Source of the DNA: an uncultured virus (IMG/VR IMGVR_UViG_3300028805_000004)
Lineage: Duplodnaviria > Heunggongvirae > Uroviricota > Caudoviricetes
Direction: 5' to 3' (one strand)
Length of the DNA stretch: 20,000 nucleotides
Virus record (IMG/VR): IMGVR_UViG_3300028805_000004
This document shows positions 4,307-19,932 of this stretch, piece after piece. Each line of letters opens with the position of its first letter. Position 1 is the first letter of the stretch. Made by a program: the position numbers and the translations under genes. The notes beneath the pieces are model-generated. The model made no database searches, had not been told where the DNA came from, and saw only the letters and a program-made list of their open reading frames with translations.

Positions 4307-4331
4307 TGTGGTCTCTCCTTTTAATTTTGTG

Positions 4332-4456
4332 AAAAAATGCCAAAAATACCAAAAAACCACTCGTTTTCTACTTTCTCCCTGAAAAAACATATACTTTTTC
4401 AGAAACTTTATGAAAAGTAAGTGGTTTTTTGGCATTTTTTAGGTATTATTGGTATT
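4332..4456. repeat. AT-rich nested inverted-repeat element in the major tail-chaperone spacer
   Basis: There is a perfect 13-bp inverted repeat CCAAAAAACCACT (4349-4361) / AGTGGTTTTTTGG (4420-4432), extended outward by tandem ~9-nt AAAAAT(G/A)CC units. An inner hairpin CTGAAAAA (4379-4386) / TTTTTCAG (4395-4402) sits between the arms. Confidence 0.85.
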
Positions 4457-4458
4457 AA

Positions 4459-6036: not shown

Positions 6037-7962
6037 TTACTGCTTGGTAACATAGATCGCACTGTACGGCTTGGTCAGCATGCCAGAGCACCGGCCCTCA
6101 AGCAGGTAGGAATACTGGTTGTAGTCCATATCGAACTTGTCGAAGCTGGTGATCTCGCCGCCGGCATTGGTGCCCACAGTGTAGTCCTTGAGGTTCAGGA
6201 TCAGGAGACCGAAATTCGCCGGAACGACTTCCTTCGGAATACGGACGATGCGGGTAACACCGAACGCATCTGCGATCTCGCTCTGATTCTTATACAGACG
6301 ATAACCCTGGCCGTCCTTCATGAGTCTGTAGTCAGCCAGCTGACCTTCGGTCATGAAGCACACCGTGGAACCGGAGCCCTTGTAGTCTTCGAATGCGCGG
6401 ACAGCAGTCTCAAGCATCTCATCAGCAACCTCGTACCGGGTCTTATTGCCGACAGTAACAGACTTCTTGATGGTCCAGAAGTTATCGTCGGAAATGATCG
6501 GATGGATAGAGCCCTCGTCGATCTTGTCCGGGGAAGTAGCGTCACGGCCGTCACCGAAGACGATTGCACGTGCCAGCTCTTCATTCAGCATCTTTCTCAT
6601 CTCTTTCCAGAGCCATGCGATGATGTTGAAGTTCTTGATCCGGATGATGGTCTCACGATCAAGCTTCTGGCGCTTGTAGAACATGCAGGCATCCGTGGAT
6701 CTCCGCATGAGCTTGAAGACTTCTTCCTTCTTCAGGTTGCCCTTAATATAACCACGGGCACGGGCCTCATCTTCGGTAATATCAGCCCACATGGATCTGA
6801 ACTTCTCGAACGGGACATGAGAAACACCGCCGAGAACAACCGAAACCCACTCATCATCACGAGCGATAAGCATCGGCTCCTGATTGAGGTTGTGATCCTC
6901 CGGGAACAGGTAGTCGATGTTCTCGACACCGTAGGAGTCATGCTGAAGAGCTCTGCCATTGCGGCCATCCGGGAAGAATACGGTAAGATCATTCTGTTCT
7001 CTGAACTCATCGCCATAGTCGCCATGAGCCAGGGCCATGGAAACGGCCTTCTTGAACGTGCCGGCAGCCCTCAGGTTGGTGTCATCGAAAATATCATGCT
7101 CAAGAGACTGTCTCGTCTCGATGAAAGCATCAAGGGAAAGAACGCCCTGACCACCGGCGCCCTGCTCAAACGGATTGTACTGCATGTACTCATCACCTCC
7201 AAAATCGTCATGTTCGGCTTCATCGCCGTCGTCTTCATCTTCGTCATCATCGTCAACCTGCTTCTTGATCTCGGAAGCATGGTCAACAGCATACTCAAGA
7301 GCCTGATAGAAGGCCGCCTGCTGCTCCTCATTCATGGTTGCGATAATGTCGTCGAGGGACTTTTTACCCTCAGTCTGTTTTTCAGCCACTGGCTTTTCCT
7401 CCTTTGGCTCGTCGGCATGCTCAATGACAGGCTCGACGGTGGGCTCGAGAGTGTCTTTGGCGAAGACCGAATGCTCGAGCGCGTTGTTATAGAAATAAAA
7501 ATCCCCAGACTCATCATCCGGGGTATAAGATCCATCAGCATGCTGGATTGACGGATACTCGATATAAGCGCCCTCGTTTGCGCCGGCAAGAACAAGGCTT
7601 ACCTCTCGGATGTTACCGTGGTAAACGTTTCCACCGGATTCACGGAGCTGGTTGGCATAGATAGAAAGTGCTGTAACAACACCTTCTTCGATAAGCCCTT
7701 TGGCTTTCTGTCCATCAGCGCTGTGACTCAGAAGGCCATACATGTACATACCTTCCGGCCGACTTTCAAGAAGACCCTTGCCGACTACAGCGTCGAGGTC
7801 TTTGTGGTTATGCTGATAGACGATCGGGACGATCTTGCCGTTGCAGTCGTCAAATGCGCTCTGCTTAATGGTTCGACCATCCGCACACTTAATGTTGAAA
7901 CGTGTTGCCCACCCAGCGAAATCATAGTTTGTCGCTGAGGGGTTCTTATACACATCCCCCAT
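6037..7962 (-). CDS. Prohead protease - scaffold - major capsid protein fusion (641 aa)
   Basis: GAGGAGG (7971-7977) precedes ATG 7960-7962. The N-terminus is an HK97-type prohead protease (FAGWATRFN...IVYQHNH...ALSI...IREVSLVLAGANEGA, with candidate catalytic His/Ser/Glu). It is followed by an acidic linker (DDDDEDEDDGDE) and a ~300-aa HK97-fold capsid region (EELARAIVFGDG; KDYTVGT; FDMDYNQYSYLLEGR). Confidence 0.92.
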   Translation of the reverse strand: MGDVYKNPSATNYDFAGWATRFNIKCADGRTIKQSAFDDCNGKIVPIVYQHNHKDLDAVVGKGLLESRPEGMYMYGLLSHSADGQKAKGLIEEGVVTALSIYANQLRESGGNVYHGNIREVSLVLAGANEGAYIEYPSIQHADGSYTPDDESGDFYFYNNALEHSVFAKDTLEPTVEPVIEHADEPKEEKPVAEKQTEGKKSLDDIIATMNEEQQAAFYQALEYAVDHASEIKKQVDDDDEDEDDGDEAEHDDFGGDEYMQYNPFEQGAGGQGVLSLDAFIETRQSLEHDIFDDTNLRAAGTFKKAVSMALAHGDYGDEFREQNDLTVFFPDGRNGRALQHDSYGVENIDYLFPEDHNLNQEPMLIARDDEWVSVVLGGVSHVPFEKFRSMWADITEDEARARGYIKGNLKKEEVFKLMRRSTDACMFYKRQKLDRETIIRIKNFNIIAWLWKEMRKMLNEELARAIVFGDGRDATSPDKIDEGSIHPIISDDNFWTIKKSVTVGNKTRYEVADEMLETAVRAFEDYKGSGSTVCFMTEGQLADYRLMKDGQGYRLYKNQSEIADAFGVTRIVRIPKEVVPANFGLLILNLKDYTVGTNAGGEITSFDKFDMDYNQYSYLLEGRCSGMLTKPYSAIYVTKQ

Positions 7963-7978: not shown

Positions 7979-9214
7979 CTACTGTTTTTCAACAGGTTCT
8001 TCCTCCTGGGCTGGAGGTTGTTTCTGAGCTTCAGCTTCTGCCGACTGGTTGATGTTCTTGTTTCTCAGTTCATCAGCACCAGGATCCTTAGAAGGAACAA
8101 GACCAAGAATCTGCCTGAACTCGTTAGAAGACATAATCTCATTACGAGTAAGCTTATCCGCAAGGTCTGCAAGCTGAGTTGTCGGAACGAGCTTGAACGG
8201 TTCCCTAAAGAAAAGAATAGACTGCCTCTGAGTACGAGCGGTCTTACTAAGGAACTTCCATCTCATACTATCACAGATAGCTGAAACGAAAGGTTCAAGT
8301 ATTCGGTTCTGGTATTCGAGTTTCTGGTCGTCAGTGGCAGTACCATCAAGGATAGCCTGAGAAAAGCCAATCTGACTGAATACCTGGTTTGTGAAGTACT
8401 CAACCTGTGAAAGCATCTTGTTTTCAATGGCTCGGTTGAGCTGGATGACATGCTCAGTTCCGTCGATGTATGCTACACCGTATTCGGAATCGGCAAGCTG
8501 CGATTTGAGGTCGTCTCTACGCTGCTTTGCCCTTGCCTGCTGAAGCTCTGTGCGTGCACTATAGGGTACCTGGATGATAAGATCAAGCTTATTGGATGCC
8601 GATTGTTCGTCAATCGTATCAAGCAAGTCGAGTTTCCTAATTAGACGCTGCAATGTGGAATTGTACTCATTCATCACAGAATATAACGGATTCTCAACGA
8701 TTGCCGTGATGGATTTGGGAACAACAATCTCCTCAAACTCACACTTATCTTCGTTGTACACACGCACTCTTATGTGTTCTGGAAACCATTCCAGAATCTT
8801 GCCAACCTTCAAGGCCTGAATATCAAAGGATGTCGTCTCTGGATTGAAGTCTGCCCTTGTGATAACAATAGCAACTACTCCTTCATCCATCATAGACATG
8901 ACAACATCCTTGATGAACGCTCTACCTGTCTGATCCCGGTTGGCATTTAAAGTCAGACAGTTGTTAAGACCAGAGTTGATCGGTTCCAGGAATCTATTGT
9001 TTTCGTCCAAACGGACGTGTTTTATAGAAATCTGAGACACGTCAACCGCGATTCTGGTCATAAACGATGCAAGAATAGAGCGCTGGTTCTCTCTTTTCAG
9101 GCGAATTCGATCCGGTCGAGAACCACCTCCGTATCCGCCACGTGAAATATAAGGCGTCGGGTCGCGGCCCAAGAAAGCATTCCACGCATGTTGTAGTCTT
9201 TCACCAAAACCCAT
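7979..9214 (-). CDS. Portal protein (411 aa; start moved from the ORF-track 9448 to ATG 9214)
   Basis: AGGAGGT (9223-9229) precedes ATG 9212-9214 (MGFGERLQHAWNAF). It has HK97-family portal features (RIAVDVSQI, L...ANRDQTG..F, IMSSNEFRQILGLVP) and lies directly upstream of the protease gene. Confidence 0.9.
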   Translation of the reverse strand: MGFGERLQHAWNAFLGRDPTPYISRGGYGGGSRPDRIRLKRENQRSILASFMTRIAVDVSQISIKHVRLDENNRFLEPINSGLNNCLTLNANRDQTGRAFIKDVVMSMMDEGVVAIVITRADFNPETTSFDIQALKVGKILEWFPEHIRVRVYNEDKCEFEEIVVPKSITAIVENPLYSVMNEYNSTLQRLIRKLDLLDTIDEQSASNKLDLIIQVPYSARTELQQARAKQRRDDLKSQLADSEYGVAYIDGTEHVIQLNRAIENKMLSQVEYFTNQVFSQIGFSQAILDGTATDDQKLEYQNRILEPFVSAICDSMRWKFLSKTARTQRQSILFFREPFKLVPTTQLADLADKLTRNEIMSSNEFRQILGLVPSKDPGADELRNKNINQSAEAEAQKQPPAQEEEPVEKQ

Positions 9215-9227
9215 TGTGGGGTACCTC

Positions 9228-9938
9228 CTAGTTATACCTAGAAGTAGACGTACGTCTGTTCCTGCGCCTACTACCGTCACCGTCTTCATAACTTGTGCTG
9301 TACTGTTTTCGGATAGTACCACCATTTCCGTAGTTGGTGACATTATTATTAACAGTATGTTCTGCTTCTTTATACTGAGCTTTATACTTTGTACCCTGGA
9401 TCTCAGATGTACTGATACGGTACACGCCAGCGGCTGCGGCAAGAACATTTATGGCAAAGTTGGCAATCTTTTCGCCCCTTGTTCGAGTGCTTCTGTACGT
9501 GTCTTTTGCAGTTACGTCGATCTTTAGCTTTTTACAAGCATCAGCAATTTCAGCCTGTCTTCCATAAGTTTTAAGGGTCTTCTCGTCCCACATTTCTTGG
9601 ACGTCCTTTAACTTGGCGCGTCTTTTCTGCTGCTTAGCAAGAACTTTTTCAGCTTTTTCGTGTTTTCCGGCCTTGCGCAATCTGTCAACACGAGCGTCAA
9701 GATTAGATAACTCGTTACGAGCCATGATTCCGTGAGCTCTGGAAACAGCCAACGCTTTATCGTTTTTGTTCAACTCACGAGTAAAACGTCTGGCCTGTCG
9801 TTTCAAGCCAGCGGTCGTGAGTGTTCCGTCCTCGTTCTGATATCTTCTTACGCCCCACTTCTGACCCTTTACTCCATGGTGGGCAAGGTATACATCATAT
9901 GCGAAAATATCAGAGGACAGTAATACTGATGTACTCAT
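9228..9938 (-). CDS. HHGxKGxKWG-motif protein (236 aa), basic, putative virion cargo
   Basis: It starts at ATG 9936-9938 (ATGA overlap with the upstream stop, preceded by GGGAGGAG). It has an N-terminal YLAHHGVKGQKWGVRRYQNEDGTLT, a Lys/Arg-rich helical body and one hydrophobic stretch (IANFAINVLAAAAGVY). I recall this motif family as DUF7211 but could not verify it. Confidence 0.8.
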   Translation of the reverse strand: MSTSVLLSSDIFAYDVYLAHHGVKGQKWGVRRYQNEDGTLTTAGLKRQARRFTRELNKNDKALAVSRAHGIMARNELSNLDARVDRLRKAGKHEKAEKVLAKQQKRRAKLKDVQEMWDEKTLKTYGRQAEIADACKKLKIDVTAKDTYRSTRTRGEKIANFAINVLAAAAGVYRISTSEIQGTKYKAQYKEAEHTVNNNVTNYGNGGTIRKQYSTSYEDGDGSRRRNRRTSTSRYN

Positions 9939-10165
9939 TGCTCCTCCCATTTCTTGATCGTTCGATTTCTGACAGCGTCACTATACTTTTTAAGGTCAGA
10001 CATCGGTGAGAAATATCCAACAGTGCCAGTTCTTTTGTCAACACCGTACATGCCCATATGAGTGGTAACAACAAAGTGCGAATTATTGTAGTCTATAAGA
10101 CTGATCGGGTTTAGTTTCGGATAGACAGCTTTAAATCGCTGTATGGCTTTTTCTGATGTAAGCAT
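9935..10165 (-). CDS. Putative immunity protein (Imm35/YrhB-like, 76 aa)
   Basis: It is translationally coupled (TAATG overlap at 10163-10167) to the toxin-tipped polyprotein. The pattern MLTxExA...(beta strands)...YGVDKRTGTV resembles Imm35/PepSY-like proteins. Confidence 0.55.
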   Translation of the reverse strand: MLTSEKAIQRFKAVYPKLNPISLIDYNNSHFVVTTHMGMYGVDKRTGTVGYFSPMSDLKKYSDAVRNRTIKKWEEQ

Positions 10166-13100
10166 TAGTGCACCACCTCTTTAATTTTCTCAGGATCAAA
10201 GTCGACATTGTCCAATCGGGCATACTGAATATTGTTAGCAACAGCCACAACGTTCATTGTATCCATTTTCATGTTGGCTTGTCCGTCATAAACATAGGCT
10301 ACACCATCGACGACTTCATAAGCCATGCTATGTCCGCCACCGCCATCCCAGGTAACCATCAGATTTCCTCGAGCACCGTCTCCTTGAGCTACGAGTTCTT
10401 TCTGGAGCTGCTCATTTACCTCTTGCTTGTACTGCTTTTGTGAGTCTTCAGAATATTTATGAACATACTTACGCTCAAGTTTTTCTGTATCAAGATGTTT
10501 TACCTTGGCGTCAGGATACCATCTTGTAACATCGCCATAATCATAACCAAACTGAACTTCGTTAGCCGTTACATCATAACCACGACGTCTCATGTCATAT
10601 GTGGCCGTACAGCACATGCAGTTATGCTTAGTATTTGTAGCAAGGTTCTTCCAACCTGGATTTACATCTTTAAGATCTTCTTCTCGCGAAGCATTAGTAT
10701 TCTGTTTAAGATGCAGTCCAGTTTCTTCGTCTACTGGTTCACCCTGTTTTCTCTTTTCAGCTTTCGATTTTGCCATTTCTGCAGATATAACGTCCTTGAC
10801 AAAGATTACAGGATCAGCAACCGCTGAAAGGTTAGAGGAGAAAAGCGCATTGACAACTGCTGATACACCATTGGCTATTCCCTCACTGTAGCTAACCTTC
10901 TTTCTTTGAGTTTGCTGGAAATTGAACATTGCCGTCTTAAGATCTGATCCGCTTGTTTTTTCTACGGTTTCTGTCAGCCTTCTCAGATGCACATCCATTG
11001 GTAAACTATCGTCAAATTCGTAACCAAAAGCATCAGCAAGCTCTTTTACTTCCTCTTCAGACATCATTCCACGATTAAGAAATAGTACTAATGAGGCTTT
11101 CTGGTCATTCAAGGTTACTTCATCTTCTTTACTAACATCTTCCCAGCCATCAATAGATCCGCCTCCTCCACCTCCTTGGACTTCAAACTCCATAGATTTG
11201 GCGTTTATCTTAAGCTTGGAAGTTACCTTATCGCGAAGCTCTGCTGCATGCTTTTTGCCAGCAGAAGTCAATCGACCGGCTTCGTCCTGAAACCTTCTTA
11301 TGCCCCACTTCTGACCTTTGATGCCGTGGTGTTCGAGAGCATTATCATCGGCAAATATAACAGCATGAGCAATCTGTTCCAGCCGATACTTGTCACGTGT
11401 GCCTGCTGACGCAGCCTTACCCATTGCTACGCCCATTGGTATGGAGGCAATGTTAGGAAGACCAGCAACTGACGAAGCAAGCGTTGTAGCTACACCAGCT
11501 AATACCGCTTTGCCAATAGCTTTGGTTCGTACAGCTCTGTGTTCATTGTAAATATCATCAACAGTCATCTTTACAAGATGGTCTGCTAACTTTTCGTACA
11601 TTTGCTTCGTGTTCGTTTGCCCACGTGCTATAGCCCTATCGATGTTTTTATCGTAACGCTTCAGCTCCTTCTCTCGAAATTTTTCAGCCTTTTCGTTACG
11701 CCGCAATCCAGCTTTTGTAAGTGTTCCATCTTCATTCTGAAACCGTCTAATACCCCACTTCTGACCTTTTATACCGTGGTGGGCTAGGTAGTTGTTATAA
11801 ACAGAGAGGTCTGAATGATTAATATAATACTCCTCAGCCCGTCTGAAAAAGTCTTCAGCCTGACGTTTTTGCCACAATGCTTTTTGTTCTTCTTGTTCGT
11901 ATCTATTATCAAGAGCTTTTAGTTTCTTGGCTTTATCGGAATCAGAAGGCAGTTTTCGAAGCGCTTTTGCTACTTTTACTCGAAGCGGTGATACTCGAGA
12001 CAAAATCTCGTCAGCTTCAGAAACATTTTTTTGCGCTTTACGAACACCCCTCTCCATTTCTGCTGCATCTAATCTTGCCTTACGTTTTGTAGTTTTAGCA
12101 GCTTTTTTAGCAGCACGAGTTTGCTTTAAAGTATCAAGGTCAAAATCCTGTGGAGTGCCTTTGTAGTCTTTCATGAATTGCCTCATGGATCTGAGACTTT
12201 TTATCATAGAGTCTACATCAGCATCTGTTCTTGCCGCTTTTCCAAGATCTTTTTTCATCTCTTCATAGCGTTTCTCCATATGGGCTTCGAGTTCTGCTCG
12301 TTTCGTATCTGCTTTTGCTTTTTTCTCGACGGGTTGTTCAGAAACTTTTGATTCTGCGTTCTCCTGACCCTTGGACTTATCTGACTTTTTAGTTCGCTCT
12401 TCTAAGTAGTCAAGTCTTGCATTACGAGCGTCATCTTTCTGCTTTTTCATAGCATACTCGTAAGCTTCAGGATTCGTCTGCTTCACAAAGTCGGAGTCGT
12501 ACTTTTTCCCATTAAGCTCTATGGTGTTACCACCACCATTGTTGGGCCCATCCGGATCATTTGGCTTAGTAGATGCTGAAGGCTTGTCAGGATCACCCTT
12601 TTGGTTCTTTGCATCAACTGTGTATTTGCTAATGCGCTCACGAGATTCACGATCAAGTTGATCTTTCTCGCGCTTGTAGTCGATGTCACGCTCAGCAGAA
12701 AGTTTATCTTTCTCAAGAGCTCTCTGATGATCACGCTCTTCTTTCTCGAGCTGACGCTGATACTTGAGTTCGTCGGCAGCTTTCTGCTTACGTTCTTTCT
12801 CGCCAGAAATATCCTCAATGTAATCCTTGGTGTCCTTGATAGCACCAGTTACATCACGGATAGCCTGGAAATATCCAACACCTCGCTTAACCTGCTCAGC
12901 AAAGCCTTTGGCGGCTCTATCGCGTTCGTCGAGTCGATTGTTGGCCTCTCTAAGCTCTTCGACAGTGAACTTGTCAGCATTCATGGTCAGGCCGAGACGA
13001 GTTTTAGCCCAAACCTTCTTCTGGCGCTCAAGCTTCTCGGCAGCTTTACGAGCTTTTACCTCTTTAGCCTTCTGGATTCCGCCACGCGCAGCCTTCACAA

Positions 13101-14169
13101 GACCCACACCGACCTTACGTCCGGCGGACATGGCGCTTTTAATACCATAGCGCTTGGCTCCAGCAGCAGTCAGACTTCCGTCAGCTTTCTGGAACCGTCT
13201 CACACCCCACTTCTGACCCTTGATTCCATGATGAGCCAGATAGGATCTGTAAGAATAAATATCATCATTTACAATCACTGAATGACTAACCTCCTCGCCT
13301 TGCAGCATACTTCGAGCTTCTTTACTGTATTTGTCGAGATCCGACTTCATTCTTTTAAGTTCATTGTCGGTGTACAAGTGTACTGAAGATGTATAGTCAA
13401 TTGCGTTAGTGGTTTTACCAACACTCCGCAAAGCGGATTCTGTTACATATTCCTCTAAGATAGCGCCAGCATACCCGCCGTCTCTTGATGTCGATATGTA
13501 TTTCTCAGCCTGATTACCCAAAGCCTCATCAGAGATTTTCCTAGAAAAATCTTGCAATGTAGACAGCGCTTTATCATAGTCAGACCTAACACGGTTTGGA
13601 TTTTTACCATTAGCAACAAGGCAATAATCGTATGAATTGTATGAACCATCATCCGCAAGGTTTTTAGGTCCCTGCCTATATGCTTCGACAATTCGTTCTT
13701 TAGTCCAACCTTTTATAGTCCGACGATCGGCTTCTGCAAGGCCTGCCACTGTACGATAAAAATCAACATTTTTTTCATAGTCTTCAGCACAAACGCTGCC
13801 AGCTTTTTTAACGCTCATGGCGAGAGATTCGATTTTATCGGCAGTAGCTGTATCTCTTGTGATGACATTGTCTACTAAATTGTCAATTTTATTTTTAACC
13901 CTGTCAAAGTCATTAGCCCGACGATTATTAGCATCTACTTGCCTAGCTTTTGCGGGATTCAGAAATCGTTCTTTAAAAGAGAGTTGCTGGTATTCAGGCC
14001 GATCGCCAAACCTATCAGATGCCTTGAATATCTTCTTTACTATCTTGTAGTTCTTTTTGGTGTTACTTAAAGGATCTTTAATTCTTGTCCCATCGTAATT
14101 CTGGAACCTTCTTACACCCCACTTCTGACCTTTGATGCCGTGGTGGGCTAAATATGTTGTGTAGCTCAT
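10165..14169 (-). CDS. Modular polyprotein (1334 aa) with four HHGIKGQKWG repeats and a C-terminal papain-fold toxin-like (Tox-PL/glutamine deamidase) domain
   Basis: AGGAGG (14176-14181) lies 6 nt before ATG 14167-14169. Repeats start at about aa 6, 310, 794 and 944. The C-terminal domain reads VNP...NCMCC...RRRGYDVTA...GDGARGNLMVTW..GGHS......G.AYVYDGQ, with Cys at 10618-10620, His at 10330-10332 and Asp at 10285-10287. Confidence 0.8.
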   Translation of the reverse strand: MSYTTYLAHHGIKGQKWGVRRFQNYDGTRIKDPLSNTKKNYKIVKKIFKASDRFGDRPEYQQLSFKERFLNPAKARQVDANNRRANDFDRVKNKIDNLVDNVITRDTATADKIESLAMSVKKAGSVCAEDYEKNVDFYRTVAGLAEADRRTIKGWTKERIVEAYRQGPKNLADDGSYNSYDYCLVANGKNPNRVRSDYDKALSTLQDFSRKISDEALGNQAEKYISTSRDGGYAGAILEEYVTESALRSVGKTTNAIDYTSSVHLYTDNELKRMKSDLDKYSKEARSMLQGEEVSHSVIVNDDIYSYRSYLAHHGIKGQKWGVRRFQKADGSLTAAGAKRYGIKSAMSAGRKVGVGLVKAARGGIQKAKEVKARKAAEKLERQKKVWAKTRLGLTMNADKFTVEELREANNRLDERDRAAKGFAEQVKRGVGYFQAIRDVTGAIKDTKDYIEDISGEKERKQKAADELKYQRQLEKEERDHQRALEKDKLSAERDIDYKREKDQLDRESRERISKYTVDAKNQKGDPDKPSASTKPNDPDGPNNGGGNTIELNGKKYDSDFVKQTNPEAYEYAMKKQKDDARNARLDYLEERTKKSDKSKGQENAESKVSEQPVEKKAKADTKRAELEAHMEKRYEEMKKDLGKAARTDADVDSMIKSLRSMRQFMKDYKGTPQDFDLDTLKQTRAAKKAAKTTKRKARLDAAEMERGVRKAQKNVSEADEILSRVSPLRVKVAKALRKLPSDSDKAKKLKALDNRYEQEEQKALWQKRQAEDFFRRAEEYYINHSDLSVYNNYLAHHGIKGQKWGIRRFQNEDGTLTKAGLRRNEKAEKFREKELKRYDKNIDRAIARGQTNTKQMYEKLADHLVKMTVDDIYNEHRAVRTKAIGKAVLAGVATTLASSVAGLPNIASIPMGVAMGKAASAGTRDKYRLEQIAHAVIFADDNALEHHGIKGQKWGIRRFQDEAGRLTSAGKKHAAELRDKVTSKLKINAKSMEFEVQGGGGGGSIDGWEDVSKEDEVTLNDQKASLVLFLNRGMMSEEEVKELADAFGYEFDDSLPMDVHLRRLTETVEKTSGSDLKTAMFNFQQTQRKKVSYSEGIANGVSAVVNALFSSNLSAVADPVIFVKDVISAEMAKSKAEKRKQGEPVDEETGLHLKQNTNASREEDLKDVNPGWKNLATNTKHNCMCCTATYDMRRRGYDVTANEVQFGYDYGDVTRWYPDAKVKHLDTEKLERKYVHKYSEDSQKQYKQEVNEQLQKELVAQGDGARGNLMVTWDGGGGHSMAYEVVDGVAYVYDGQANMKMDTMNVVAVANNIQYARLDNVDFDPEKIKEVVH

Positions 14170-14192
14170 ACAAGCCCTCCTGCTTTTGGTGC

Positions 14193-14741
14193 TCACATGC
14201 TCAAGCCATGATTGCTCAGATAGTTCTGGTATGCAGAAATATCAGAATGCTTTACATCCTTACCTGCATGGCCATCATTGGTAATCTTTGCATCCTGGAA
14301 ACTGACTGTAACGTGTTTCCTAAAGTATTCTTCCTGTTTCTTTTTCTTTTTCTTGTATCTTTCTAACGACTTGGCAGCCTTCTTTGTGGCTTTCTGTAAA
14401 CGTTTGTGATTTTTGTCTATTTCGCGCTGCTTCTTTTGCAGCTTCATCAAGGATCCAACGCCTTTAAGCACTTCTTTAGAGGAATTGGCAACGTTTTCCC
14501 AATTTACTTTTTCTCCTCTTTTCAACGGGAAGTAAATTTCATCAGCAATACCTTCTCGCCAGCCTTCATCTATATCGGCCTTTAAATCTTCTATTGTTTC
14601 ACCATCTTCATTAGTCAAAGGTTTACCACCTCCGCCGCCTTGTCCTTCAAATTTGACAGACTTGGCATCGCTGGCATCTTTATGATGTCCCCACTTCATG
14701 CCTTTTACGCCATGGTGGGCAAGATAAGCTCCGTAACCCAT
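14193..14741 (-). CDS. HHGxKGxKWG-motif protein (182 aa; start moved to ATG 14741)
   Basis: GAGGTG overlaps the terL stop and precedes ATG 14739-14741. The sequence is MGYGAYLAHHGVKGMKWGHHK, then a poly-Gly linker, a Lys-rich helix, and a degenerate copy of the junction motif at the C-terminus. Confidence 0.8.
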   Translation of the reverse strand: MGYGAYLAHHGVKGMKWGHHKDASDAKSVKFEGQGGGGGKPLTNEDGETIEDLKADIDEGWREGIADEIYFPLKRGEKVNWENVANSSKEVLKGVGSLMKLQKKQREIDKNHKRLQKATKKAAKSLERYKKKKKKQEEYFRKHVTVSFQDAKITNDGHAGKDVKHSDISAYQNYLSNHGLSM

Positions 14742-14748
14742 AAGCACC

Positions 14749-16497
14749 TCACTCAAACATGTCAATGTTCTGTCTATAGGCAACCCATGCATCCATCAAG
14801 GCCGATACATTATCGATCTTGTCAGCATAACGCTTCTTCCAAAGCTTACGGTTGCCATTGGTATCTTCAAGAACCATGGCATTGCCCATAGTCATACTCA
14901 TTAGTTCCTCATCAAAGAGCAGCATGCGCTCACTGGCAAGTTTCTTCAACTCACCGAGCGGAACTGACTCTGTCTTTACTCCCTGGATTACCTTAACAAC
15001 TCCAAACTCGCCTCGATCTTGAATATAACGAGCAACAAACTCCTTAGCATTATACGGGTCGTAGCCCATGCAGAGAACGTCGTACTGTTGGTCTTCCATA
15101 AACTGGTCGAGGTCGTCGTAAACGTCCATCATGTTGAGGACTGTTCCTTCAAATACGACGAGACTGCCTTCATCCATGAACTGACGATACTTGTCCCTTG
15201 CTGCCGGCTGTAGCCTTTCATAAGTTAACGAAGAAATATAACTTCGAACCTTGATTCCGAACTTCCCGTTCTTCAACGGGAACAAGAAGGTGGCTGCACA
15301 GAAGTCGTCACCTTGAGATAAGTCCAAACCAAGAGCACACGGCATCTTCCAATAGCTCCGTTTCCGATGTGGCTGTATCTCAGCATACGTGAAGTAGTAG
15401 GTGAGCCCCTCCATCGGTATCCCGAAACGCTTGGCAAGAATATCGTTGCGAGCAGACGGAACGTTTTCAGCTCTTTCGACGTCGAGCTGGTAGGTTTCCC
15501 AGGAAACTGTCTTTCCGAGATTCGGATTAGCTTTGAGCCACATGTCAGGATCGTTGACTTCCGAAACATCGTCAAGACGGTAATACCAAATGGACACATG
15601 CGGTGCATAATAGTCACCTCGAAGGATGTCCATTAACTCCATTTTGATTGAGTCTCCAGCTCCGTTACGAACACAACCCTCAGAGCTAGAAGCGATGATG
15701 ATGTAGTCGTCCAATCCACCCTTTCGAGCACCCTGTTCAAGAGCACCGACCGGATCTTCTCGCAGAACACCAGAGAGCCACTCGTCTACTGTGGAATACT
15801 TCACTCGTAATCCCTGAAGCTTGTCAATGACCATCGGTCTGATCTCAAGAAGGGAGTTTGTGAGAAGATTCTCGATACCCTTTTTGGTACTGGCAAGCTT
15901 TGGACGGTTCATCTTGGAACCAGTGGTGTTCTGCATCGAGCCATTGGTCAGAAATCTGAAGAATGGTCCTCGTGACTTGGTGATGGAGGTCTTGAATGGA
16001 GACAAAACCTCCTCGGACTGTTTCATCGTTGGTGCAGTTGTGACCTGATGAGTTGTCGACGGGTCTACTGTCAAGCCGAATGCCTGAATGCAGAAGTCGT
16101 ACATACTCTTAGCCGCTCCTCGAGCAACAATCAGATACTGCTTTGTTGTCAGACGCTTCTTGACTGTCCGAACAACGTAACGAACTCCGTGTCCGTTAGG
16201 GTCTGGCTCCGGTACCGGCTGTCTTACAAAGTAATACCAACCATAGAGCTGTTCGGCCCAAAGCTTAAAGCTGTCCAACAAGAAGAGAGGCTGACCGTCG
16301 GTTAAGGTAAGTTCGTTTTCACAGAACTCAACCCAGCCGTCGATAGCCTCATCATCGTAAAAGTATTTTGGATTGGCTATGAGAGCGTCAATCCTATTCA
16401 TCTCCATAGAGATTTCTTCATTGACCGGTATCTCCCCCCGAAGAACCTGATCACGAAACTCTTTGTAGTATTTCGGGGTAGCTCGATTTGAAAGCAT
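14749..16497 (-). CDS. terL: Terminase large subunit
   Basis: 582 aa with Walker A 'LIVARGAAKS', Walker B 'YSTVDE', coupling motif 'IASSSEG', and RNase H-fold nuclease motifs 'LGLDLSQGDD', 'YDPYNA' and 'KIDNVSALMDA'. Confidence 0.95.
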   Translation of the reverse strand: MLSNRATPKYYKEFRDQVLRGEIPVNEEISMEMNRIDALIANPKYFYDDEAIDGWVEFCENELTLTDGQPLFLLDSFKLWAEQLYGWYYFVRQPVPEPDPNGHGVRYVVRTVKKRLTTKQYLIVARGAAKSMYDFCIQAFGLTVDPSTTHQVTTAPTMKQSEEVLSPFKTSITKSRGPFFRFLTNGSMQNTTGSKMNRPKLASTKKGIENLLTNSLLEIRPMVIDKLQGLRVKYSTVDEWLSGVLREDPVGALEQGARKGGLDDYIIIASSSEGCVRNGAGDSIKMELMDILRGDYYAPHVSIWYYRLDDVSEVNDPDMWLKANPNLGKTVSWETYQLDVERAENVPSARNDILAKRFGIPMEGLTYYFTYAEIQPHRKRSYWKMPCALGLDLSQGDDFCAATFLFPLKNGKFGIKVRSYISSLTYERLQPAARDKYRQFMDEGSLVVFEGTVLNMMDVYDDLDQFMEDQQYDVLCMGYDPYNAKEFVARYIQDRGEFGVVKVIQGVKTESVPLGELKKLASERMLLFDEELMSMTMGNAMVLEDTNGNRKLWKKRYADKIDNVSALMDAWVAYRQNIDMFE

Positions 16498-16503
16498 GAA
16501 ATA

Positions 16504-17790: not shown

Positions 17791-19932
17791 TTACTTAAGA
17801 AGCTTAAATATCTCGATGTCTGACAGCCAGGCATCACCGAGTGCGTTCTTGAGACCGTCGCCAAAGTGACCAGGATACTCAACGCCCTTTGGATCAAGCC
17901 CCTTGCAGTAAGCAATGATCTGAACAGCTGTGACGACATACTGTGTTTCACCCTTACGAATGTAATGGCCTTCAAAAGCCTTACGTGTAAGCGGACCAAG
18001 ATCTCCGTCTTCCTTAAGACCAGAACCCCAGTCAAGGTTTGCAGCATGCTGAAGACATCTCACCATCTGGCGGTTGGTATTACTCCCTCGAATGCCATCA
18101 AGCTCGATCTTGAAACCTGTGAACTTGACGGATTCGGTCTGTCCCTTGAACACCAACTCCTGAATGGGTGTGAGCTTCTTGGCCGGCTTGACGTAATGGA
18201 AACGAACTCCGTAACCGAACTTCCGCCCATAGTCTCTCCAAGCCGGTTCAATGAACTCTGATCTGTAGGGCTGCTCTCTCTGGATCTTGGAATCCATTCC
18301 GAAATCCCATTTTGAAATTACCGGAGCGTAATCGGACGCCATAACAAACGTATGGAACGTCGGATCACCAGGAGCTGCAATGATGACGATGTCACCAGCC
18401 TGAAGATCTTCCTTGCGATCAATCTTGTCAGCTACACCGAGATTGACAAGCTTGATGAAGTCCTTGGTAAGGTCTCCATGACTTCCACCGAGGTCAGCTC
18501 GCTGCCTGGTCCATCCGAGATTATACATTGCAGCTGAGGCAAGTCTGTCACAAGACCACTCGGAAGTTCTGCCAATCGGGAAACACTTGTTGTCACCGTA
18601 CAGGTTGATTCCTTTGGACCCATGCGGATCGAGACTGAAGGCATAGTCCGCTACAGCGTCGAGCTCCTTAAGCCACTGCTCCTTGGTGAACGGGATTGCA
18701 GTAAGCCGCTGACCCTTCATGTGGAACACGTAGTCCTCGATAAGCTTAAGGCTGGTCTTCGGTCCGAACTCACCGTCAACTTCAAGCTTCCCTCGCCAAC
18801 CCTTCTGGTACTCACGGACAGCAAGCATCGAGAGTCCGCCGTAGTCACCATCAAGGTTTCCGGTGTACCAGCCAAGGACACGCAAGCACTGCTGCATCTC
18901 TCTGACTGTGAGCTGATACCGGCTGCCGGAAACAAGAACGATGACAGTATGACCCTTGGTCTTGGTTACGAGAATATCACCTCGAGCCAGCTCTTCCTGG
19001 GACTTCACGTAAACCTGGTCGAAGTAGCCACTGTTGGAAAGGGCAGACGGTTCGTCACCAGTGTAGAAGTCTTTGATGTCGATGCCAGAATATTTGATGC
19101 AGCATCTGACAAGACGAGCGCAGTCGGTCTCACAGGGCGTCGTGACCTTAGAGAGATCGAAGTCTACTTTCTTGGCTACGGAATATAAGCTCTGGTTGTT
19201 GGACTGGTCGTAACCAATGTTGTCGTTGGCACAAGCAGCCTCCATGGCTTCAGCAATGAGCTCTCGTACGAAGACAGACTTGGCTCTGAATATGAACCAG
19301 CCCTTGGGATGATCGTAGTAGGGCTGGGTTGAAACCTCGCGACCATTGTTGTCTCCGGCCTGTCCGCCAGAAATGTTGCCGTTCTCGTCAATGCGAGCTG
19401 ATCCGATCGTAACCATTGTATGTACTCCTATGTCATACTGTGTGAGATTAAACTCGTTGATGATCCTCATTACTGAAGAAACATAGGTTGGGCCGGTAGC
19501 ATAGCCACGCTGGCTAACCTGAGTGATTAAAGCTCGAGGATCTGTAATCTTCAGCACATCACGATACTTGTAATGCCCTCCAGTCTTAGCATCTCGCATG
19601 AACTGAAGATAGTCATAAAAGCAATCATCCAGAGTTCTATACTTGCGGAAAGAATCCCAAATGGTTGTTGGCACTCCGTTGTAAACCTCAGGGGTGTATT
19701 TCTCAACTGTATCACCATGCCAGAACTCTGACTTCCAGGTTGAATTGAGAAGCTCTGTCTTCATTCCAAGGCAGTTGTTAGCCTGGGAATATAGTTCACT
19801 GCCTGAACCAGTACCGAAACCAGGTTCTAGACAGGCCTGGGCAATGAGAACCGACGGCAAATAACCGCTAAATCGTAGACAAGCAGCAACAGCTAAAGGT
19901 GCTACAAGCTGCACGTATCCATCTCGTGTCAT
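17791..19932 (-). CDS. Multi-domain endolysin (GH73 glucosaminidase + two NlpC/P60/CHAP-like peptidase domains + peptidoglycan-binding domains)
   Basis: 713 aa, RBS AAGGAG at 19939-19944. GH73 motifs: PSVLIAQACLE.GFG, ANNCLGMK, FRKY, GYAT. Peptidase 1: IGYDQ, TDC, GDILV, GHT. PG_binding_1: MQQCL..LGW..G.LDGDYG...AVREYQ....LEVDGEFGPKT. Peptidase 2: YGD, SCD, LQAGDIV, HTF. The C-terminus has DG..G..T repeats. Confidence 0.88.
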   Translation of the reverse strand: MTRDGYVQLVAPLAVAACLRFSGYLPSVLIAQACLEPGFGTGSGSELYSQANNCLGMKTELLNSTWKSEFWHGDTVEKYTPEVYNGVPTTIWDSFRKYRTLDDCFYDYLQFMRDAKTGGHYKYRDVLKITDPRALITQVSQRGYATGPTYVSSVMRIINEFNLTQYDIGVHTMVTIGSARIDENGNISGGQAGDNNGREVSTQPYYDHPKGWFIFRAKSVFVRELIAEAMEAACANDNIGYDQSNNQSLYSVAKKVDFDLSKVTTPCETDCARLVRCCIKYSGIDIKDFYTGDEPSALSNSGYFDQVYVKSQEELARGDILVTKTKGHTVIVLVSGSRYQLTVREMQQCLRVLGWYTGNLDGDYGGLSMLAVREYQKGWRGKLEVDGEFGPKTSLKLIEDYVFHMKGQRLTAIPFTKEQWLKELDAVADYAFSLDPHGSKGINLYGDNKCFPIGRTSEWSCDRLASAAMYNLGWTRQRADLGGSHGDLTKDFIKLVNLGVADKIDRKEDLQAGDIVIIAAPGDPTFHTFVMASDYAPVISKWDFGMDSKIQREQPYRSEFIEPAWRDYGRKFGYGVRFHYVKPAKKLTPIQELVFKGQTESVKFTGFKIELDGIRGSNTNRQMVRCLQHAANLDWGSGLKEDGDLGPLTRKAFEGHYIRKGETQYVVTAVQIIAYCKGLDPKGVEYPGHFGDGLKNALGDAWLSDIEIFKLLK

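Follow-up and report, generated by a model that had tools for sequence, protein, structure and literature searches.

A conserved peptide behind a hydrophobic-x-His site heads exchangeable modules beside the head genes of an uncultured siphovirus and suggests a head-loading system resembling the T4 internal proteins

Introduction

Why should a tailed phage repeat one short, almost invariant peptide in front of a series of unrelated protein segments, in the middle of its packaging and head genes? The question is raised by a gene block of the uncultured virus IMG/VR IMGVR_UViG_3300028805_000004 (Caudoviricetes), from which a stretch of 20,000 nucleotides, hereafter the window, was analysed. The block (9228-14741) is flanked by the genes of the terminase large subunit (TerL) and the portal protein, and it encodes three proteins with six copies of the motif H-H-G-[IV]-K-G-[QM]-K-W-G, here called the tag, each copy heading a segment of its own (module). 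An original prediction, made from the DNA alone, had taken the tag for a capsid-targeting and/or processing signal by which variable effectors are loaded into the head. Having followed up this proposal by computational analysis of the window and its relatives, we conclude that the block is probably a His-specific head-loading and processing system of the kind known from the T4 internal proteins. The presence of the tagged proteins in the virion is very likely, and their cutting at a hydrophobic-x-His site is nearly as well founded; that they are ejected is a fairly probable next step, and that most modules act on the host is a tentative suggestion which we would rather doubt. Unless another label stands before them, coordinates are window positions, and the whole block, like all other window genes described below, lies on the minus strand.

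Results

The motif starts at 14717, 14145, 13233, 11781, 11331 and 9881, and these are also its only copies in the whole 63.9-kb genome. Since 40 codon shuffles of the genome gave no copy at all, a chance origin of the six could be rejected. As predicted, five copies continue with [VI]RR[FY]Q, and the one in the smallest tagged protein continues with HHK. The motif had been named as DUF7211, and Pfam PF23847 (DUF7211) indeed exceeds its cut-off of 27 bits in all three proteins (34.4 bits, 91.4 bits in four stretches, and 34.9 bits). On one side the block is bordered by terL (16497-14749; 582 amino acids, PF20441/PF03354), on the other by the portal gene (9214-7979; 411 amino acids, PF04860). 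It begins with a stand-alone tagged gene of 182 codons (14193..14741) with tag copy 1 at its N-terminus (14688..14717, the DUF7211 core followed by HHK; motif search and Pfam), continues with a four-module polyprotein of 1334 amino acids (10165..14169; defined by Pfam and by the related polyproteins P0005-P0009 and P0015), in which tag copy 2 (14116..14145, motif search) opens module 1, and ends with a second stand-alone tagged gene of 236 codons (9228..9938; tag copy 6 at 9852..9881, motif search and Pfam). All three have ribosome-binding-site-like starts. The module lengths of the polyprotein, given beforehand as about 305, 485, 150 and 390, were measured as 304, 484, 150 and 388 amino acids. 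The earlier description of three tagged genes was correct and left out a fourth, untagged gene of 76 codons (9935..10165), which is treated below as a candidate inhibitor or immunity partner.

When the tag is removed, the six window modules show no mutual BLAST similarity at E 0.01, in agreement with the expectation of largely unrelated cargo. The same cargo had been called mostly basic, which holds for five modules (net charge +9 to +31) and fails for the acidic module 4 (-11). The 182-residue protein (14621-14647, minus strand) and module 4 (11158-11183, minus strand) have in common a short Glu/Gln-Gly-rich motif soon after the tag; the modules that end P0005, P0007 and P0008 contain it as well. 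That the polyprotein is an artefact of assembly was ruled out by two contigs: one, taken from a separate assembly of what is probably the source sample, agrees with 9849-16500 at every position, and one from another study (run X7) covers the block in the same order.

An indication of what the tag may do comes from the head gene, which encodes a 641-residue precursor in which protease, linker and capsid protein are fused. Its structure model consists of a confident protease (residues ~11-137), a mostly low-confidence linker and a capsid domain of the HK97 fold. The best fold matches of the protease domain (7552..7962; AlphaFold pLDDT 95) are assemblin of varicella-zoster virus (VZV; Z 10.2, root-mean-square deviation (rmsd) 2.8, 110 residues aligned) and T4 gp21 (Z 10.1, rmsd 3.0, 117 residues aligned), the next, unrelated fold reaching Z 4.4, and the His, Ser and Glu columns are invariant in the protease alignment. 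The acidic, mostly low-confidence linker or scaffold (6940..7551) contains seven hydrophobic-x-His sites (His141, 164, 182, 228, 289, 313 and 341) and one A-E-H (His251). The first site follows directly after the protease and the last would start the capsid protein at residue 342, so that Asp342 is the predicted mature start of the capsid domain (6037..6939); in a structural alignment the first mature residue of HK97 (104) falls on model residue 343, which is precursor residue 344 (Z 17.4, rmsd 4.3, 263 residues aligned), and the last linker site is thus within about two residues of it. No solved structure matched the capsid precursor by sequence, therefore no real mature N-terminus could be read off.

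The site is not a peculiarity of this phage. In the 50 of 53 non-redundant precursors that were parsed, Leu, Ile, Val, Met or Phe stands two residues before the linker His in 286 of 317 cases and the residue after it is Ala, Ser, Gly, Asn or Asp in 285 of 317, while the same hydrophobic rule applies to 49/209 His in the capsid domain, 37/150 in TerL and 24/149 in the tail tube protein. Tag contexts collected with a position-blind pattern have the same hydrophobic residue in 115 of 115, and it is Leu in 106 of them. The portal protein also begins with such a sequence (L-Q-H-A-W), and its N-terminal His is found at this place in 77 of 112 relatives. When the protease domain and a tag peptide of 38 residues were modelled as a complex, the score was 0.02 against a mark of 0.32, which is evidence neither way. 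As a sole mark of cargo, a hydrophobic-x-His site within the first 40 residues had to be discarded (41/121 untagged genes of the head region against 147/597 genes outside).

In the 1334-residue polyprotein 7 of the 24 His residues fit the hydrophobic-x-His rule, and all seven are located at module borders, where four open a tag and three precede one by 11-16 residues. Junction 1/2 (13204..13284) consists of V-S-H (His296), a 16-residue spacer, L-A-H (His313) and tag copy 3; junction 2/3 (11752..11817) of I-N-H (His785), an 11-residue spacer, L-A-H (His797) and tag copy 4; and junction 3/4 (11302..11367) of I-A-H (His935), an 11-residue spacer, L-E-H (His947) and tag copy 5. From these paired sites follows a general layout of the joint: cargo end, site, short neutral-to-acidic spacer, site, tag, with a spacer that resembles the leader of a stand-alone gene. 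A set of 41 distinct internal junctions was drawn from 18 fetched multi-tag open reading frames (ORFs), from related polyproteins and from genome loci; a His site lies upstream in 32 of them, compared with 170 of 5000 control windows. Gln occupies the site in six of the nine others (593 of 5000 control windows) and three have neither; that Gln may sometimes replace His is only suggestive. Judged from the layout, cutting at the paired sites would release separate proteins, each beginning with the conserved peptide. This would fit the idea of the tag as a processing signal; the hydrophobic-x-His code and the paired-site spacers had been missed. Just before its stop codon the 182-residue protein has a V-K-H-S site, followed by a stretch like a spacer and by what is left of a broken tag (14193-14249, minus strand), an arrangement that looks like a joint left over after a split. 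Likewise, the C-termini of P0005 and P0007 carry a site, a spacer and a broken tag.

Site and peptide could also be read as a binding motif for coat, scaffold, portal or metal that is never cut, the polyprotein being packaged whole by several anchors. The conserved residues continue for ~12 positions after the His, further than a protease site requires; this would suit such a motif, as would the conserved pattern at the portal N-terminus, and we know of no His-specific protease with the gp21/assemblin fold. The precursor, however, must be cut in order to free the capsid domain, and no other recurring linker sites were noticed; the last linker site coincides with the expected mature start; and paired sites around short, variable spacers, together with the small next residue, fit a protease. 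We consider an uncut binding motif improbable and retain cutting as the preferred explanation.

The modules occur in both fused and separate form. In P0015 (774 amino acids) counterparts homologous to modules 1 and 2 are followed by a third module, which shares 202 of 217 residues with the 236-residue protein of the window, and a more distant version of that module stands at the same place in P0006 (33%). The polyprotein is indeed a concatenation of stand-alone gene types, as had been proposed. The tag copies at 11781 and 9881 are 78% identical over 87 nt of DNA, and a crossover between them would give the P0015 arrangement with loss of modules 3-4 and the 76-codon gene; the event may have run in either direction. 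A fusion joint of module 2 with the 236-residue module was not among the joints listed from four runs. Exchange is visible between strains as well: the X7 contig keeps the flanks and has ~765 unlike bases in place of the module 1 cargo (13293-14043), and an X3 contig keeps the tag of the 236-codon gene and the portal with ~700 unlike bases between them. As the sequence comparison shows, tag-coding DNA marks the joints where modules fuse, split and get replaced.

The peptide behind the site is itself replaceable. At three of the five TerL loci that lack DUF7211, the same slots are filled by cargo genes which keep the leader and the site and continue with an unrelated peptide. Y-N-H-N-H-D-x-L-G-R-F (10 N-termini), Y-A-S-P-Y-Y-D-P (6) and W-K-Y-[IV]-K-K (3) were found after leader and hydrophobic-x-His; cargo loci with such alternative peptides are L025:1760-5159, L027:9002-15750 and L028:1307-7513, and in L016, L021, L022, L071, L081, L148 and L149 genes of this kind are placed between the portal and capsid genes. 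Since unrelated peptides stand behind the same site, the site is the constant element, and what follows it comes in a few families. The peptide after the site needs an explanation of its own, candidates being docking in the prohead, DNA binding or ejection.

These data also bear on the view that the repeat is a DNA recombination joint and nothing else, the tagged genes being late accessory genes whose products work inside the infected cell and stay out of the virion. The tag-coding copies of the window are 65-78% identical and mark swap points, and some tagged genes of relatives lie in replication or lysis regions, just as this view would have it. Yet the copies differ mostly by synonymous changes, and the protein motif is almost invariant across hosts of widely differing guanine-plus-cytosine content; in addition, unrelated peptides fill the same slot behind the same site, and proteins of this kind are labelled structural in phage 1706 (see below). 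We regard this view as very improbable.

A total of 211 non-redundant tagged ORFs (193 with a single tag, 15 double, 3 quadruple) yielded 232 modules in 107 BLAST families; the cargo varies, as the original prediction had anticipated. The first tag has a median distance of 10 residues from a Met and lies within 45 residues of one in 209 of the 211 ORFs. The largest family (66 members) is lineage-wide, mostly derived from the gene just upstream of terL, and is matched by the first module of 1706 orf7; module 2 resembles it by eye only, its family profile did not match and membership is not claimed. A profile search with module 1 retrieved 8 proteins, namely itself, six other tagged phage-type proteins and, as the weakest, the untagged P0010, and gave no function. 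In the ESM Atlas the same module gave only sub-threshold matches (0.80-0.83), some of them resembling ADP-ribosyltransferases, and these were not accepted.

Pfam was applied to 149 of the 208 tagged ORFs from outside the window, the 58 shortest and one near-duplicate being left out. Known enzyme domains were detected in 17 of them (matches to Tox-PL1 in 7, GNAT in 6, 2H phosphoesterase in 4 and ADP-ribosyltransferase in 1, one protein holding two such domains), CW_7 or DUF6582 in 2, the tag only in 126, and nothing in 4. In five actinophage-type relatives a 2H phosphoesterase lies N-terminal to an internal tag (L003:10347-11975, L005:5916-7640, L125:8551-10275, L131:3918-5147, L090:11842-12753; by Pfam in four of them, and in L005 by the GenBank label 'RNA ligase'). 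Enzymes of the 2H type could degrade cyclic-nucleotide defence signals.

The window has its own example of enzyme cargo, which had been overlooked in the earlier account of the block. Module 4 ends in a papain-fold Tox-PL1 / Gln_amidase domain (10276..10623; PF15644, E 2e-7), and in an alignment with 8 relatives it keeps Asn1183-Cys1184, His1280 and Asp1295, corresponding to the Asn-Cys, His and Asp reported as catalytic in the accessible part of PMC3482391. The 76-codon gene follows directly. A profile made from 8 genes that stand downstream of other Tox-PL1 modules, and built without it, recognises it at E 1.4e-5. In this gene family 20 of 24 members directly follow a Tox-PL1 gene, 8 of these pairs being the ones that had built the profile, and none is tagged; conversely, 20 of 33 Tox-PL1 ORFs have such a partner gene. 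Weak PepSY matches (E 0.02-0.2) were obtained for 3 of 9 genes downstream of Tox-PL1 and none for the 76-codon gene of the window, and Imm35 gave no match among the nine. The gene is a candidate inhibitor or immunity partner which would stay in the producing cell, and the weak PepSY similarity of its relatives would fit a peptidase inhibitor.

How far, then, is the term effector system justified? Variable enzymes and a toxin with a partner speak for it, while the 17 known enzymes in 149 proteins, a conserved family of 66 modules and the basic, featureless nature of most modules speak against it, so that the term stands only in part. It would be overstated if the proteins are loaded and cut and yet serve mainly a structural purpose, as a DNA-condensing core, pilot or ejection conduit, with the enzymes as passengers. 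Net basic charge in 94% of the 232 modules, a strongly hydrophobic 19-residue stretch in 32 of them, the lineage-wide family shared with 1706 orf7 and the 126 scanned proteins without any Pfam family besides the tag are what such a role would lead one to expect. Against this, 89 of the 107 module families are singletons, copy number per locus ranges from 0 to 8, strains swap their cargo, and the enzyme types (papain-fold toxin, GNAT, 2H phosphoesterase, ADP-ribosyltransferase) are typical of conflict systems, the toxin having its dedicated partner gene. On balance a mainly structural role seems unlikely, and we keep to a loading system with exchangeable cargo.

The linkage of the tag to head genes, a point of the original prediction, is seen throughout one phage lineage. 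TerL is 68-71% identical to those of Gordonia DJ, Rhodococcus Pepy6/Poco6 and Streptomyces BI phages and of gut contigs, and HNH, connector, TerL, portal, protease-capsid fusion and DxDGD RNA polymerase are shared with the 1706/Pepy6/Oengus supercluster. By its gene order and its DFDGD RNA polymerase the phage belongs to the supercluster of actinophages AM/AU/AW/BI/CC/DJ/EL, Lactococcus 1706 and FP_oengus which is described in the accessible part of the preprint 10.1101/842583. Among the matches listed, 75 of 80 loci chosen by TerL carry the tag; conversely, this TerL is present in 69 of 69 viral loci that were selected by the tag and had their flanks fetched. Loci of one contig overlap in these counts. 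The tag is close to universal in this lineage. Cultured members have 8 (Pepy6 stretch), 6 (Mossy), 5 (Sporto) or 1 (Scap1, Oengus and 1706, each) tagged genes. The position between terL and portal is true of the window and does not generalise: in 83 distinct loci 117 copies are upstream of terL, 94 between terL and portal and 1 past the portal (212 in total), and some lie far away.

Relatives were also found inside bacterial contigs, and lytic isolates are among them (PMC4110766). In a bacterial genome collection TerL was within 8 kb in 57 of 79 flanked loci and some lineage marker in 66; twelve of the others, which were inspected, proved to be mostly replication, lysis or tail-end regions of apparent related prophages. 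Tagged genes in such regions were seen in L240/L241, L245, L246, L257, L260, L262, L264, L265, L269, L299 and L304; their neighbours, where listed, look like the same phage lineage, and at several of these distant loci a full tag stands inside an ORF of ~300 codons whose N-terminus is a different conserved protein. The runs best matching window 9000-15000 are labelled as metagenomes of sheep gut (X1 and X2, possibly the source) and goat gut.

One protein of the phage with a variant of the tag had escaped earlier notice. A single-chain RNA polymerase-like protein of 928 amino acids with a DFDGD motif (G000:C1:472-3258, minus strand; L001) starts with the tag variant L-F-H-Y-G followed by S-G-R-Y-P-W-G; 43 of 44 distinct N-termini of such polymerases have an acidic leader and [LI]-x-H-x-G, and some continue with Y-G-V-K like the tag. 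If the contig is circular, this gene is just upstream of the window genes. Homologues occur in 250 phage records, where they are mostly annotated as helix-turn-helix proteins and in 1706 and Poco6 as 'structural protein'. In the GenBank record EU081845.1 of phage 1706 the label 'structural protein' is given both to orf7, which has two tags, and to orf75, the RNA polymerase homologue at the far genome end, away from the structural genes. These labels reportedly come from mass spectrometry of purified phage.

Two other features of the genome may be mentioned. A ~120-bp repeat in five copies (95-100% identical) is found at window 4321-4457 and at about 5473, 11478, 21153 and 39665 of G000:C1, and the phage's own RNA polymerase may use it as a promoter or leader. 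A 713-residue endolysin with glucosaminidase, ELLD and peptidoglycan-binding domains is encoded upstream of the packaging genes (17791-19932, minus strand).

Discussion

The block would encode internal head proteins of a siphovirus with a protease-linker-capsid precursor. It is strongly suggested by the linker and tag statistics that the fused gp21/assemblin-fold protease cuts after hydrophobic-x-His with a preference for a small next residue, and that such cutting would dismantle the linker and free the capsid protein. With similar strength the data argue that the acidic leader, L-x-H and the conserved basic peptide draw the tagged proteins into the prohead, where they would be trimmed at the same site, and that the paired sites of the polyprotein would serve to excise the short spacers and to release modules with the conserved peptide at the new N-terminus. 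With moderate confidence, the released, mostly basic proteins may sit with the DNA and at least some may leave with it upon infection; the RNA polymerase with the tag variant may leave likewise. A minority would be enzymes, in the window a papain-fold toxin domain presumably restrained in the producing cell by its untagged neighbour. The predicted capsid-targeting and processing role of the tag thus gains indirect backing from the head genes of the lineage, from the site shared with the linker and from the structural label of the two-tag protein of 1706.

Several observations weigh against this interpretation. Hydrophobic-x-His is also frequent in the protease domain (169/297), portal (102/201), connector (49/101) and putative small terminase (36/67), and a few conserved columns could give such rates without any cutting. 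To our knowledge no His-specific capsid protease has been described. Several of the 41 junctions are close kin, and relatives, reduced at 80% identity only, are not independent. TerL was lacking within 8 kb of 22 of the 79 genome loci, and the tag occurs in 7 of 604 genes that lie outside the head region. In 1706 orf62 and orf71, also labelled structural, have no tag, and a known enzyme was recognized in just 17 of the 149 scanned proteins. Finally, the conserved targeting part of T4 is removed, while here the invariant columns are at or after the His and the leader is loosely acidic; since the conserved part lies after the presumed cut, the T4 analogy does not explain that part.

A bolder proposal goes further: the His-specific protease may unmask the peptide as an ejection signal, which would make the system a lineage-wide, reprogrammable delivery code in phages of Gram-positive hosts, loading a ~100-kDa virion RNA polymerase together with cassette effectors exchanged at tag DNA, with several unrelated peptides filling the slot. 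We put it forward as a speculation that is somewhat less likely to be right than wrong.

No paper was found for DUF7211, PF23847 or the motif strings in a search that did not extend to subscription papers, and the papers listed for the lineage, its virion proteomes and its polymerase showed nothing on the tag; PMC4110766 and the accessible part of PMC4155818 do not mention it. The protease specificity is probably new. If the proposal is true, DUF7211 and one to eight orphan genes per genome gain a function in a widespread lineage of gut, soil and dairy phages, His becomes a new specificity of capsid proteases, the lineage's unstudied RNA polymerase is suggested to be virion-borne, and phages of Gram-positive hosts have a packaging tag like the T4 capsid-targeting sequence. 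We know of no such tag established for phages of these hosts. The window contributes a four-module chain with paired sites, interchange of fused and stand-alone modules, strain-level cargo swaps, alternative peptides and a toxin-partner pair. Since many members of the lineage are cultured and the predicted cut sites are exact, the core claim is directly testable.

Compared with what has been described before, the Pfam entry DUF7211 covers the same motif and gives no function there, and the accessible part of the supercluster preprint (10.1101/842583) is concerned with the lineage and its polymerase and mentions neither the tag nor cut sites nor cargo genes. The MuF polymorphic toxins, as presented in the accessible parts of PMC5576092 and PMC3482391, are similar in their place beside portal and terminase and in having the toxin at the C-terminus with a small gene behind it. 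According to PMC3482391, Tox-PL1 occurs as a fusion to MuF in head operons and is thus a known MuF cargo, and head genes of the MuF and 'VIP2-like toxin' types from other phages are among the relatives of our module. The carrier here is, however, a peptide of ~25 residues with many tagged genes per genome, and no MuF-family Pfam match was obtained in the window proteins or the 149 tagged relatives. The polyvalent proteins (PMC5512222, accessible part) likewise consist of several modules and are encoded next to virion genes; their packaging and injection are predicted, and GNAT and ADP-ribosyltransferase domains occur in their repertoire. They differ in that each module here has its own tag and border sites and that the head protease, instead of an internal metallopeptidase, is taken to do the processing. 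In the window polyprotein one of four modules has a named domain; Pfam detects no anchor of the MPTase, ArdC or MuF type, modules 1-3 being without any assignment.

The ejection proteins of SPN3US and phiKZ, whose propeptides are cut at A-x-E-type sites according to the accessible part of PMC5694885, share with our model a single protease motif that recurs in capsid, portal and inner head proteins, propeptides with more than one site and a virion RNA polymerase in the head, whereas here we deal with 55-78-kb siphoviruses, a single-chain RNA polymerase, one short conserved tag in place of long propeptides and His specificity. The closest counterpart is provided by the T4 internal proteins IPI-III and Alt, which have a capsid-targeting sequence and are processed by gp21 (accessible parts of PMC9958956 and PMC5694885). 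Common to both are a short N-terminal leader ending in a prohead-protease site (at which cutting is presumed here), unrelated cargo that looks non-essential, a protease of the gp21 fold encoded with the head genes, and the same site studding the scaffold and the capsid propeptide. Unlike T4, where Glu precedes the cut, His would do so here; the head is that of an HK97-fold siphovirus whose precursor unites protease, linker and capsid protein; the modules form chains, with spacers that could be excised, and undergo recombination; and the RNA polymerase carries a variant of the tag. The loose analogy with T4 capsid targeting drawn in the original prediction is therefore sustained in the protease fold, the leader and the common site and fails in the Glu specificity and in the removal of the conserved peptide. 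On this comparison the best reading is that of a system which would work like the T4 internal proteins yet is no member of that family.

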